Assembly (NCBI RefSeq): GCF_006345805.1
Contig: NC_043011.1
Span: 44,590,464-44,654,463, forward strand
Length of the DNA stretch: 64,000 bases
Direction: 5' to 3'
DNA from: Octopus sinensis
Lineage: Eukaryota
The notes beneath the pieces are model-generated. The model did no database searches. It worked only from the letters and a program-made list of their open reading frames with translations, and was not told where the DNA came from. The translations under genes were made by a program, and so were the position numbers. Shown here in pieces: positions 1,700 to 47,502 of this stretch; positions within the stretch are counted from its first letter, which is position 1; each line of letters starts with the position of its first letter.

Positions 1700-2075
1700 A
1701 CAGAATGAAGGAACCTATGTCTCATCAGTCGGGGAAGCAGCTCTGTAGGTGTTTCAGCCCCTTCCACCATGACACCAGAGCTGCCTGGGGGAGGGGGGTG
1801 GAGCACCTATGTAGGCAACAAAACACCCCCCACAAGAGCAGAAGCTTTGTAGAGTCAAATGTTGTGACTCTGAGTATGATGTTTCTATCATCCTCAATGC
1901 TCGTCCTTACTGCACTGTTCATCCTCTCTCTTGAGCTAGATGTAATGGTTTGCTTTCTCAGCAGCATCCAACAATTTTCTGACAACATCTTTTCTCTCCT
2001 TCACAGCTAGTCCAAGATTCCTGAGCATTGAGTGAATCCTGGTACCAACAACTCTTCTAACACCAACCTCAACAC
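1700..2075 (-). mobile_element. Decayed 3' end of a HERO-like (restriction-like endonuclease) non-LTR retrotransposon
   Basis: Minus-strand translation across a frameshift gives VEVGVRRVVGTRIHSMLRNLGLAVKERKRCCQKIV/DAAEKANHYI*LKRE. This resembles the EVGxRG...AEKASxWxWxKR C-terminus of HERO-clade ORFs and is followed by a structured 3' UTR. Confidence 0.7.
1718..1790 (-). ncRNA. Candidate non-circularly permuted hammerhead ribozyme in HERO-like 3' UTR (copy 1)
   Basis: GGUGUC (1776-1771) pairs with GAAACACC (1755-1748). Outer helix is GCAGCUCU/AGAGCUGC. CUGAUGAG lies at 1728-1721. UGG-U-GGAAG can pair with CUUCCCCG as stem I. Confidence 0.55.
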
Positions 2076-2137
2076 AAAAGCATATTAAGATCAATTAAGA
2101 TCAAACCCCAGGAGTTGACCAGTATTGTATTTAATCC

Positions 2138-8232: not shown

Positions 8233-8878
8233 TAATCTGATCAATAAGTATCCAGACTATTGCCATAGTAACGAAGCTAAAGCATGCAGAGTGAAGCTGC
8301 TTGGCACAGAGTGACCTTGAACTCTGCTGTGCATTCACACTAAGTTTTAATGCTCTATCTCGCTTCTGTTTATAGCAATGCTTAGTAGGAAGGTGTGTAG
8401 CGTGTGATCATCGCATTGACCATAACCGAGAAAGTTGAGCAGAGGATCTGCATCAAATTTTGCCAAAAGCTTGGCGATACCTGCTCAGACACCTATGTAA
8501 AATTTTCAAAAAGTTTTCATCATTCTCAACACAATCAAGATCTTCTCCCCTCACAGCTGCATGCACATCTGCAATGTTTTTCTCAGTTCTGCTGGTTGTG
8601 GGTCTCCCAGAACATTTGTCAATACCGACATTTTTTTGGCCATCTTGAAAATGTTTGAACCACTCATACACTTGTGTGCAGCTCATACACTCCTCTCCAT
8701 ATACTTTCTGCAACTTCACATATACTTCAGAGCAGGTATCGCCATGACAACTTTCTCTGTCATGCTACACACCTTCCTTCCAAGTACTGTTGTAAACAGC
8801 AGAAGTGAGCTAGAACATTAAAACTTAGTGCACATACACAGCTGAGTTCAACAACTATTTGTGCCCAGCAACTTCACA
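8233..8878. mobile_element. Fold-back mariner derivative made of two inverted 5' halves
   Basis: The + strand encodes TEKVEQRICIKFCQKLGDTCS. The minus strand encodes KLQKVYGEECMSCTQVYEWFKHFQDGQKNV...SGRPTTSRT (mariner HTH). Segments 8291-8430 and 8750-8878 are reverse complements. Confidence 0.8.
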
Positions 8879-10649
8879 TTTTTGCCAGCTGAGTGAACTG
8901 GAGCAACATGAAATAAAGTGTCTTGCTAAAGGACACAATGTGTCACCAGGAATTGAACTCACAACCTTATGATCGTGAGCTGAATACCCTAACCACTAAG
9001 CCATGCACGTTCACTATATATATATGTACACATACACACACATAAATACAAATATGTGCATATATATATATATATAATTATACATATACAATACCATTAC
9101 CATGAACACCACCATCACCACCACATCACCACCTTCACCACCATACTCCTAGTCTACTACCACCCACACACTAGTTTTTTCCCAAACATTTCTATAAATT
9201 CTAGTTTTTATTTAATCTCCATATATTTTTATTGACCAGTAAACCTACCTGCACCCACTACCATACCACCACTATCACCACGACAACCACCACCACACTA
9301 CAATAGCCAACACCACACTGTTACAACACACAGCACCGTCACCACCATAAGAGGCATTCCAGAAGTTTTAAAACATTTTTAGGAGACACAGTAGATTTCT
9401 GTAATTTTAGTCTCTCGTTATTATACATCTAATAAGCTGACCTGACATTTTTTTGTTACGCCAGATTGAATGAGACTTTGAACACACCCTGCTAAACACT
9501 GCTTGTCACAACTGACTAGTTAGCAGAATGAAGGTAGGACGTGAAGACAATATGCAAGCTTGTTATGTGCAGTAGTTTTATATCAAACTGGGAGAAAGCA
9601 CTGCAGAAATTTTTGAAATGCTCCAAACTGGATATGGATTAACTTGTAGGAGCTGAGCATTTGTTTTTCACTGGCATAAGGGACCAGGCAATGCAAGTCC
9701 ACTGGGAAGCTCATGATGACCTACTTTTTTGCCAGCACGGACATCATCTACATCCACTGACACTTGTGCTGGTGGCACATGAAAAAATCATTCAAGCGAG
9801 GTCGTTACCAGTGCTGCACCAAGCTATTGCACCAAGCTTCACAGTCTGTTTTAGCGTGATCATTACCTATTTCTTTAATACCCACAAGGGGCTAAACACA
9901 GAGGGGACAAACAAGGACAGACAAACGGATTAATTCGATTACATCGACCCCAGTGCGTAACTGGTACTTAATTTATCGACCCCGAAAGGATGAAAGGCAA
10001 AGTCGACCTCGGCGGAATTTGAACTCAGAACGTAACGGCAGACGAAATACGGCTATGCATTTTGCCCGGCGTGCTAACGATTCTGCCAGCTCGCCGTGAT
10101 CATTACCAGCGTCGCCTTACTGGCATTTGTGCTGGGGGTACATGAAAAACAACATTCGAGTAAGGGCGTTGCTAGTGCCACTGGACTGGCTCCTGTGCAG
10201 GTGATACGTAAAAACACCATTTGAGCATGGCCGTTGCCAATACCACCTGATTGGCCCTCGTACCAGTTGCACGTAAAAGCACCCAGTGTGGTTGCCATTA
10301 GGAAGGGCATCCAGCTGTAGAAACTCTGCCAGATCAGATTGGAGTCTGGTGCAGCCATCTGGTTCACCAGACCTCAGTCAAACCGTCCAACCCATGCTAG
10401 CATGGAAAACGGACGTTAAATGATGATGATGATGATGATGATGACTGGGTTTCCTTTGGCCAGGTGGTCAACAGAATACTTTGCAGGGGTTTTGAAGGAG
10501 TTCAGAAAGAGATTTCATCACAAAAAGCCAAAGCAGTTGCCCCAGGAGAATGCACCAGTTGACAGTTCCATCCTGGTAACCAACAACTTGACACAGATGG
10601 GCATCAAAACTGACCTTCACCTTCCCTCTAGTCTTGACCTTTCTCCAAG

Positions 10650-11010
10650 AAACTGTGGTCTGACATTGCTGAAAAGAGCTCAATGGGATATGGGCAAAGA
10701 GAAATGACCAATGGACCTAGTTATGGATTCCATTTGTTATTTACAAGAACAGAAAGAAGAAGAGAACTGATTCCTTCATCGGTCAGAATGGCCTGGTGGG
10801 CTGAAATACAGACCTGGGAACACAAAGAACAACCTAGGTTCAAATCCCACTGGAGACAGGATTTTGGAAAACAGCAGGAGGACACCTATGTGTCATGACC
10901 TGGGTGGGCCTAGTTCCCGTAGTGTCAAGTATAAGGGCTGAAACACTTGTCAGATGGGAATTCTTCCTCTGAAGAGATCTCTCCATTGTGTGCTTGACTG
11001 TTTTTTTGTT
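10650..11010 (+). mobile_element. Second HERO-like 3' end, inserted in the mariner
   Basis: DIAEKSSM/IWAKRND (frameshifted) resembles the HERO C-terminus. The 3' UTR has the same GTGTC...GGGCTGAAACAC...CTGANGAG architecture as 1718-1790. Confidence 0.6.
10910..10980 (+). ncRNA. Candidate non-circularly permuted hammerhead ribozyme (copy 2)
   Basis: AGUGUC (10921-10926) pairs with GAAACACU (10940-10947). Outer helix is UUCCCGU/AUGGGAA. CUGAAGAG lies at 10969-10976. Stem I is degenerate (5 of 8 pairs). Confidence 0.5.
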
Positions 11011-12329
11011 TGTTTTTTTTGGTGGGGGAGGATGTTCCCTAAGCTGAAGGAGAAGATGAAGGAGGCTGTGACAAGGGCCCTGGATACCTTCACTTTGAAG
11101 GACTTTCATAGGGGCCCTTCACGAAGTAACTGGAACACTACAAGTGCACTGAAGTCAGACGAGCCTACTTTGAAGAAGATTAGAGTTTGGTACTTCTTTG
11201 AAATTAATAAACGTCTCTCCTGAAAAAGTCTTAAAACATCTGGAATGCACGTTATTAAAATCACACATTACTAAAATCACACATTACGACCACACACCAC
11301 TAAAACTACCGAACAAACTACAATTAAACTACAACTCCTCAGAAATCTTGTCATTATGTTTGTTGCTATGGTTGTTGCTGTTTTTGCTTAGTCCTAGGTC
11401 AGCTTCAATCCAGAAGACCTAGTATTGAAGGTGTTCCAGTCATGACCACCCCATCTTTTTATACCATGTACAATGAACTCAGCACTATATATCATCCAAC
11501 ACATCCTTTTCTAACAGTAATGTGTGACTTGAAAGAAGTATGGCTGTTATTTGTAACAGATCAAACAACCACATAAAATTTCACTTGGATCTTGATGATA
11601 TAATATAGTTGTTGTTATTGCTGTTGTTATTGCTGCTGCTGCTGTTGCTGTTGCTGCTGCTGTAGTTGTTGTTGTTGTTTGTTTGTTGTTGCTTCAAAGT
11701 ATCGCCCATTCATGGCTAATCTCTTTCAAATCTATTTTTAGAAACTACTAACTTTATTTGTGATTCCTTAATTACAGAACCTGATGTGGGGGGGGGGTGA
11801 AGTGAAGAGGAGGGAGTTGGGGGGTGGACGACAATGACAAGGAGGAAGGGAAGTGTGGGAGGAGGTGGGAGAGAAGGAGGCAGAGATAACTTTACCATTT
11901 CTACAGAATTCCTTTTTAATTTCCTTCAGATATGAAAGATTTTGAATAGATTTGTTATAGGTGTTGGGTGAGTTGATGGTGGTGGTGGTGGTGGTGGTGG
12001 TGATAGTGAAGATGGTGGAGATAGCAATGATGATAGTGGGGACAGTGATGTTGGTAGTGGTGGAGGTGGGGGTGATAGTGATGGTGATAATGATGGTGGT
12101 GGTGGTGGTGAGGCTTCTGGTGCATTGATGGATGTAGTGGTAGCAGTGGTAATGTTGGGAGATAGTGGTGGTGGTGGTGGTAACTGGTGTAGTAACAACG
12201 GTAATACATTGGTAGTTGTAGTGACGGTTAAACTGTCTAGATCTAAATTTTAGTTCTTTTGAACTGATATTGGTGTACACTGACTTCATGTTTACAACTG
12301 TCAGTTGCAGTTTGACTGTCACTTCACAG

Positions 12330-46239: not shown

Positions 46240-47502
46240 ATGTCATCCCATAATAATGCTATCTTTTTATACTTTTATTTTTCAAAATTAAGATAAAGTT
46301 CTTTTTTATCTAAAATACACTCTCGTTCATTTTCTATAATGCTCTTCCATCTATCTGGTAGACATGCAAGGTCCCACTTCTAAAATTCACTTGTCTGTGA
46401 TGAAAAATACTCTTCCAGATCTGTGCTGACCTCGTCTACAGAATTCACATTTTACCATCCAAATGATTTTGAAAACTGTGAAATAAATGATAATCAGATG
46501 GACACTGTCCAGCAAATATGGTAGATTTCCCATTCAAACTGCTCCAGCTTTTGGAATGTCATCTTTGCCATATGTGACCGAGCATTATCCTGATGGAAGA
46601 ACACCTTTCGTCTTGAAACCAAAGATGGTCATTCTTCTTCTAGCACTGACTTAAGCTGCAAGCTGCTCACAACAGATCTTATTTGTTATCATTTGGTTTG
46701 GGTTTAAATGTTCAAAGTGGACTAAACTTTTCATATCCCACCAAACAGATAACAACACCTTACGTGGGTGACAACCTTCTTTAGCCTAGAGTGCCAGTGT
46801 TTCTCTTTCCTCTACCTACTGTCTTATGCGCTTGACATTTTTATAGAGAATCCATTTCTCGTCACCAATCACTATTTGGTCCAAAAAAAGTTCATTCATG
46901 AGACGTGACAGCAAAGAAGAGCACACATTTAATCACTGCGCATGATTAGACTAGGAAAATTTGTGAGGAACCCACTGACCCAATTTGCTGACTTTTCTGA
47001 TGGCATGCAGGTGTCGAAGAATGGTTGAATGACCAAATCCAAGCTTCTCTACTAGTTCCTTAACAGTTATGATTGAATTTTGTTCCACCAGGGTTTGCAG
47101 GACATCCTCAAGCCCTACAGATCTTGCAAGACGAGGCTCATCTTCTAGGCTGTAGTTTCCGGCTCTGAATCTCTGTAACCCCCATTGACACCATATTACG
47201 CTTATTGTCCAATCCCCATATACTGCATTAATATTCTTCGCATTTTCCATTGTGTTGTTGTCTTTATTGAACTCATAAAGCAAAATATGCCGAATATGCT
47301 TCTTTGTCATTTCCATTATAGCTTTGAAAAAATAACTGTTAAAATCGAACTGCACTCTTCACAACTTGCACTAAGAATAAGGACAAGGTAAAATTACTAC
47401 CTGCTTTTATAGCAAGTTGATGCAGGTAGTTTATCCAATCCCCCTCCGACTTTTAGTTCATGCAATTGAAAAAAAATCACATTATTTATGGAATGACCCA
47501 AT
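46240..47502 (-). mobile_element. Full-length decayed mariner (~1.26 kb)
   Basis: TIRs gtcatcccataataatgc / cacattatttatggaatgac in TA context. Transposase KHIRHILLYEF...RFRAGNYSLEDEPR...KLGQWVPH, DEKWI and HQDNARSH, with frameshifts. Confidence 0.9.

Follow-up and report, generated by a model that had tools for sequence, protein, structure and literature searches.

Two permuted hammerhead motifs behind HERO-type LINE remnants

The window, by which we mean the whole stretch of 64,000 nucleotides under analysis, is eukaryotic and rich in repeats, both microsatellites and numerous dispersed ones, the latter including SINEs that we take from their look to be octopus-like. It also contains two decayed LINEs of the HERO type, each retaining merely the last 20 to 60 codons of its open reading frame (ORF). 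The 3' untranslated region (UTR) of each harbors a hammerhead-like motif, copy 1 at 1722-1776 on the minus strand and copy 2 at 10921-10975 on the plus strand, and an RLE-type ORF C-terminus precedes the motif in both cases (Table 1).

An earlier note on this DNA had described the same layout and letters in both copies, little other common sequence and a similar spacing between GUC and GAAA. All of this held: layout and letters are as described in both places, blastn returns no homologous alignment of the two copies beyond short matches, and the spacing is 13 nt in copy 2 and 15 nt in copy 1. The core nucleotides C3-U4-G5-A6-N7-G8-A9, G12-A13-A14-A15.1 and U16.1-H17 are present in both copies. 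The copies belong to different families; the UTR of copy 2 is nearest to those of the related loci L060 and L072, and the copy 1 peptide groups on a long branch with L001 to L006 in a quick protein tree.

A search pattern with a 4-bp stem III matches the window in these two places only. The same pattern yields a mean of 0.42 matches per shuffled window and at least two matches in 5 of 100 shuffles, so the two copies alone are borderline evidence. Neither copy folds better than its shuffles by energy folding (z = -0.41 and +0.26), and stem I has decayed to three of five in-register pairs in each. Both copies are decayed and probably inactive. A 9-bp alternative helix in copy 1 was rejected, being out of register and absent from kin. 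Scanning with Rfam gave no match at the gathering score in the window and only weak unrelated matches at 10700-11200; among the kin described below, L046 gave only weak unrelated matches and 20 loci gave only tRNAs, with no hammerhead. Rfam scans miss the fold because CUGANGA is separated from stem II.

Directly upstream of copy 2 lies a 70-codon frame (10441-10650, plus strand) that resembles the C-terminus of a mariner transposase, a resemblance for which Pfam gave no backing. Elsewhere in the window, 8456-8764 and 46954-47358, both on the minus strand, are fragments of Mariner/Mos1-type transposase helix-turn-helix domains (PF17906).

Table 1. Positions of the two HERO-type remnants and of the elements of their 3' UTR folds in the window
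Feature	Position	Strand	Remarks
Copy 2, HERO-type ORF end (AEKSSM / IWAKR)	10655-10720	+	5'-truncated, frameshifted; stop at 10718-10720; family cover from about 10653
Copy 2, P0 5' strand	10872-10882	+	Partner is the bases directly after A9; family loose ends after 10975 complementary
Copy 2, P4 hairpin	10883-10906	+	Adjoins P0, ends at G10.1; 7/8 pairs in window, 8/8 with family-majority letters
Copy 2, stem II 5' strand	10907-10911	+	G10.1 = 10907; upstream of predicted cut
Copy 2, extension (stem I-II interaction) helix, 5' strand	10914-10920	+	Pairs with 10954-10960
Copy 2, stem III 5' strand and GUC	10921-10926	+	AGUGUC; cut predicted by analogy after C17 = 10926
Copy 2, stem I strand A	10927-10931	+	Decayed
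Copy 2, stem II 3' strand, GAAA, stem III 3' strand	10935-10947	+	11.1 = 10939; GAAACACU at 10940-10947
Copy 2, extension helix, 3' strand	10954-10960	+	
Copy 2, stem I strand B and core	10964-10975	+	CUGAAGA at 10969-10975; A9 = 10975
Copy 2, P0 3' strand	10976-10988	+	Two extra bases relative to family
Copy 1, same fold	1708-1824	-	More decayed; model match E = 9e-6
Copy 1, P0 strands	1809-1816 and 1713-1720	-	
Copy 1, extension helix strands	1777-1784 and 1737-1744	-	8 bp
Copy 1, stem III 5' strand and GUC	1771-1776	-	GGUGUC; C17 = 1771
Copy 1, GAAA and stem III 3' strand	1748-1755	-	GAAACACC
Copy 1, core	1722-1728	-	CUGAUGA
Copy 1, HERO-type ORF C-terminus	1894-2085	-	One in-frame stop

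The motif recurs behind the ORFs of related HERO-type elements

A search with the copy 1 peptide returned 29 proteins. CCHC, PD..ELT and AEKASxWIWLKR motifs occur in the longer ones, and an alignment of 12 of the 29 served as the query for related loci. The resulting set holds 84 loci, namely 79 metagenome loci (from the best 80 of 266 confirmed) and 5 in prokaryote assemblies (L080 to L084); these last HERO-type LINE contigs are most likely contamination from eukaryotic hosts. The viral contigs searched held no relatives. Intact kin encode one ORF of 1147 to 1158 amino acids with RVT_1, CCHC and PD..ELT, for which R2 proteins are the nearest solved structures, and one such ORF has named relatives in teleosts, lancelets and bivalves. 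By eye, 58 of the 71 reverse transcriptase residues shown for HERO-2_DR in the PMC5678591 supplement match L046. We call the kin HERO-type because of their domains, their relatives and this match by eye. The frame of one database protein, P0026, continues past the stop, and its tail is a translation of the ribozyme region in the 3' UTR of the L046-like family.

A strict pattern that required the core letters together with stems I and III, and allowed G at position 17, matches 40 of the 84 loci (best 80 of 266 plus 5), and C17 lies 53 to 289 nt behind the ORF match. We derived 21 families from 37 of these 40, leaving out L084 (internal deletion) and L009 and L055 (contig ends). A covariance model built from 29 kin rows, and from no window sequence, recovers copy 2 at E = 6e-11 and copy 1 at E = 9e-6, the next match having an E value of 0.4. 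It also matches 58 of the 84 loci (29 being the training rows; best 80 of 266 plus 5), all on the strand of the ORF and just behind it. In a quick protein tree, 58 of the 65 loci in one branch are matched and none of the 19 in the other (best 80 of 266 plus 5). The seven misses in the larger branch comprise four loci with less than 130 nt of downstream sequence, two with a decayed motif and one without a motif. The ribozyme core is kept across protein lineages 27 to 61% identical to the query.

Four loci of the branch that lacks the ribozyme (L058, L068, L075 and L078) have another motif in common in their 3' UTRs, one without CUGANGA.

Six helices and a rewired stem II

Two helices, P0 and the upstream stem II, played no part in choosing loci. 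Across the 21 families, P0 forms 9.24 of 10 pairs between its own strands compared with 7.04 between swapped partners, and stem II, when paired with a strand about 21 nt 5' of the predicted cut, forms 4.71 of 5 compared with 3.75; none of 2000 permutations reached the observed pairing in either case. The earlier note instead implied a stem II in which the G after CUGANGA is G10.1. That register pairs at chance in kin: the bases after A9 form 2.29 of 5 pairs in the 21 families compared with 2.22 when swapped, and on the alignment 44.8% are paired, a value that 192 of 500 shuffles equal or exceed. The partner is the upstream strand. Among the 25 full-length loci outside the training set, which include some close kin of training rows and leave out 4 partial matches of 29, at least four of five stem II pairs form with the upstream strand in 21 and in the downstream register in none. 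The apparent G10.1 of copy 2 comes from two extra bases that are absent from the loose ends of its family contigs. The earlier helix set was also incomplete, P0 and P4 having been overlooked.

The helices covary. Both sides change in four of five pairs of stem II, in all five of stem I, in five of six of stem III and in all six of the extension helix, so that the covariation claimed for the last two from the window copies extends across kin families. The closing pair of stem II is G10.1-C11.1 in 18 of the 21 families. A sequence-only alignment of 29 rows, several of them visibly misaligned upstream, has changes on both sides in 37 of 40 pairs and 78% of cells paired, compared with 34 to 47% when slid. 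P4 adjoins P0 and G10.1 without a spacer in 15 of 16 well-paired families, and energy folding returns P0 and P4 together in five of five kin (z = -2.9 to -5.7). In 18 of the 21 families, 0 to 2 nt separate the stem II strand from the start of the extension helix, and C17 lies 13 to 17 nt from G12 in all 21. The six helices thus covary on separate, non-overlapping strands, and the core follows hammerhead rules, including an N7 that takes all four bases across the 21 families. The earlier proposal that selection maintains a permuted, hammerhead-like RNA in the 3' UTRs of HERO elements is supported. The fold is conserved across HERO lineages and, judged from these alignments, is most likely a hammerhead of new connectivity.

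The best explanation of these data is, from 5' to 3', the strand order P0a, P4 hairpin, stem II 5' strand (G10.1), extension, stem III-UH with the predicted cut, stem I-A, linker, stem II 3' strand-GAAA-stem III, extension, stem I-B-CUGANGA and P0b. A9 enters the 10-bp helix P0 and P4 ends at G10.1, so that a perfect four-way junction splits the core block. We infer that A9 and G10.1 exit side by side from stacked P0 and P4 at this junction. According to PMC3705267, a viroid hammerhead tolerates a one-base insertion at the A9/G10.1 step, which is the step where the junction sits. The extension helix is the stem I-II interaction helix of the type-SGC ribozyme discussed below, here joined also to stem III on both strands. 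A chimeric model, in which an element inserted at the ribozyme cut site of another family, is unlikely because the cut-spanning helices match within each family, the mixed array L014 included.

Core signatures and the predicted cleavage site

Position 17 is A, C or U in seven families each and G in none of the 21, with G allowed by the pattern. Similarly, in the same 25 non-training loci, U4, A6, A9, A13, A14 and A15.1 are invariant (25/25) and H17 is never G, and C3, G8 and G12 are kept in 21, 22 and 21 loci, respectively. L032 and L071, which are 81 to 85% identical and form one lineage, carry U3-A8, a single double change; the exchange of C3-G8 for U3-A8 is known as a covariation among natural hammerheads (PMC3088659). 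L029 and L035, of another lineage, carry U3.G8.

G12 is the general base, and its site is a CpG. It is replaced by A in 4 of the 25 non-training loci. Two of these, L062 and L067, are separate insertions, 94% identical, whose flanks differ and whose ORFs are broken. This change should kill catalysis. The G12A common to both suggests that a source with a dead core may have transposed, or that CpG decay struck twice. By analogy with known hammerheads, cleavage is predicted after UH, and we consider putative self-cleavage by the HERO hammerhead to be likely.

The copy 2 family in pooled contigs

The family of copy 2 was read as pooled variants in contigs of four runs aligned to 10640-11000, among the variants listed, and it is multicopy. 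In the family contigs P4 and stem II are restored, as is part of stem I; with the family-majority letters, P4 gains its full eight pairs and one extension pair changes from U-A to C-G. The suggestion that the U before GAAA reflects CpG decay of C11.1 is supported, with C at 10939 at 50 to 56% of the depth and A at 10940 at 20 to 32%. Young copies had been expected to carry C before GAAA together with a perfect stem I. The C is there as expected, and stem I is repaired in part: 10928 A>G reaches 72 to 78%, whereas the change needed for a perfect 5-bp stem I (10930 T>A, 6 to 32%) is a minority variant. Among the loose ends listed after 10975, those of the family lack the two extra bases of copy 2 and are complementary to P0. 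No copy that ends or begins exactly at the predicted cut is evident in the listed contig ends, a kind of end that contigs show poorly.

Relation to known ribozymes and retroelements

The nearest known system is the type-SGC hammerhead (HRIMA-1 and variants), which Eckert et al. 2023 (PMC10085705) describe from metatranscriptomes with the block order GUC-GAAA-CUGANGA. The HERO fold agrees with it in the order of cut site, GAAA and CUGANGA, in its full core, in the stem I strand that a short linker connects to the stem II 3' strand, and in a helix that links stem I to stem II at their distal ends. In type SGC, however, block C is intact and CUGANGA is joined to the stem II 5' strand, whereas in HERO that strand lies upstream, A9 runs into P0 and P4 completes a four-way junction. 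We therefore rejected type SGC proper, since CUGANGA is without a stem II 5' strand directly after it. The best explanation of the fold is that the type-SGC ribozyme has been circularly permuted, with the opening placed between A9 and G10.1 at the four-way junction, where P0 and P4 meet stem II and the core. Eckert et al. assume CUGANGA to be inseparable from its stems and report no SGC RNA in the genomes of known organisms. Hammerhead types I, II and III were rejected as well, the order being S-G-C rather than their C-G-S around a three-way junction, and Rfam giving no hammerhead match.

Other known systems are similar in part. The pseudoknot-containing (PK) hammerhead (PDB 8YDC, PMC11300833) adds a helix to a hammerhead core whose stem II is largely a pseudoknot. 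Among animal retroelements that occur in tandem copies, Penelope-like elements and metazoan retrozymes (PMC7229834; PMC4209133) likewise carry hammerheads, but these are of type I and belong to short noncoding repeats or Penelope ends, whereas HERO, about 4 kb long, is an autonomous LINE of the RLE type with about 27 bp across the predicted cut. R2, also an RLE non-LTR element, has a self-cleaving RNA that processes its cotranscript (PMC3774820); it is an HDV-like ribozyme of another class that sits at the 5' end and cuts at or near its own edge, whereas that of HERO sits at the 3' end with the predicted cut in the middle of the fold. The HERO clade LINEs HERO-2_DR and HERO-1_BF (PMC2790886, PMC9004415 and the PMC5678591 supplement) have the same single ORF with RT, CCHC and PD..E endonuclease, and kin in fish, lancelet and bivalves.

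The available portions of those three sources make no mention of a ribozyme or 3' UTR fold for HERO, nor do those of PMC13725137, PMC13580325, PMC7650587, PMC10162972 and PMC11300833 mention either such a ribozyme or a splitting of block C. Our searches of the openly accessible literature found no paper on either; a prior mention in subscription papers, Repbase notes or bioRxiv supplements is possible.

One locus, L080, has an SGC-order motif at 1127-1252, a single example in a branch otherwise without the fold and unmatched by the model. The bases that follow its CUGAUGA may form the pairings of canonical SGC, namely a stem II of 2 bp and an interaction helix of 8 bp, and this motif is also followed by a second ORF.

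Head-to-tail arrays

A second HERO ORF start on the same strand follows the ribozyme in 12 of the 51 loci with at least 600 nt of downstream sequence (best 80 of 266 plus 5), a count that excludes L066 (weak and on the opposite strand) and may be inflated because short-read assemblies collapse repeats. L046, L053 and L071 are head-to-tail arrays of a single family, and in L052 the 3' part of the element's own ribozyme precedes the element. L014 (1-6420) joins head to tail two HERO elements that are 66% identical in protein and both have long open frames; at this divergence a single circle cannot make such an array, for which template jumping or self-targeting is a candidate origin. Arrays in general may likewise arise by template jumping (PMC11371274). 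Neither window copy is part of an array.

Proposed role and competing explanations

P0, stem II, the extension helix and stem III place about 27 bp across the predicted cut. Since four helices span it, the products may stay clamped together, a weaker inference than that of cleavage. Genomic copies keep both sides of the predicted cut, and the copied template was therefore uncut, re-joined or crossed at the nick. In the model that we favor, two successive predicted cuts in the transcript of a head-to-tail array would free a unit-length RNA, the ends of which would come together to re-form the ribozyme and give a circle, either nicked or ligated. Reverse transcription, primed at the target, would begin in the short tail after the ribozyme, cross the join and could run on, which would explain both the two halves kept in genomic copies and the frequent arrays. 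Retrozymes provide a precedent, as they yield monomeric and circular RNA (PMC7229834). That an active hammerhead would cut array transcripts into self-clamping or circular monomers, cleavage and role taken jointly, we judge to be evenly balanced between right and wrong. We advance more tentatively, as possible rather than probable, the further proposal that the HERO topology falls outside the six proposed permutations and that an autonomous LINE replicates via a ribozyme-closed circle and rolling reverse transcription.

The same helices and core would fit an active ribozyme with a regulatory task. Its predicted cleavage would take off or nick the 3' tail of a single-copy transcript, either to shift that RNA from translation into reverse transcription or to keep the element's activity down. 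Copying would then be confined to RNA that is uncut or re-ligated, and arrays would arise separately, by template jumping or self-targeting. The mixed-family array L014 is in its favor, as are the template jumping of R2 proteins and the tandem transgene junctions obtained with endonuclease-dead R2 protein (PMC11371274), and the G12A common to L062 and L067 would fit escape from a brake. A pure brake should vanish, yet the core is kept across lineages 27 to 61% identical, and the four cut-spanning helices are left unexplained; we regard this explanation as rather unlikely. RLE elements bind their own RNA at the 3' end, as established for R2, and the fold sits at the very 3' end of HERO. It could be a noncatalytic structure on which the element's reverse transcriptase docks, comparable to the 3' UTR of R2 and perhaps descended from a hammerhead, a reading in line with the retention of both sides of the predicted cut, with the lack of a canonical-register stem II and with the existence of G12A copies. 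The upstream stem II partner, however, leaves no competition for strands among the helices, and protein docking does not predict the avoidance of G17, the free N7, G10.1-C11.1 or the change from C3-G8 to U3-A8, all of which makes docking unlikely in our view. Chance resemblance or an assembly artefact would accord with the 5 of 100 shuffles that match the window pair and with copies that fold no better than shuffles. It is extremely improbable given that a model free of window sequence picks exactly these two places, that covariation extends over 21 families and that contigs of four runs repair P4 and stem II and, in part, stem I.

If the fold is an active hammerhead, a non-circularly permuted hammerhead would be placed in animal genomes together with its host element and a testable job. 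A breach of the rule that CUGANGA cannot leave stem II would imply that further ribozymes lie hidden. It would also raise a question for RLE retrotransposons, which are being engineered for gene insertion, namely how copying proceeds from an RNA able to cut itself near its 3' end. A hammerhead with about 27 bp across its cut would be a natural candidate for an RNA circularizer.

A conserved motif at the start of the HERO 5' UTR

Beyond the ribozyme, the start of the HERO 5' UTR contains a conserved repetitive motif with CUGG..CCAG and repeated UGAC and GGAAAGAC units. We observed it in L014 (3600-3720), L046 (3350-3450) and L052 (50-150), as well as in L059, L063, L070, L071 and L084. It begins 50 to 87 nt after A9 in the six strict loci measured and could act as an internal promoter or form a structured RNA.
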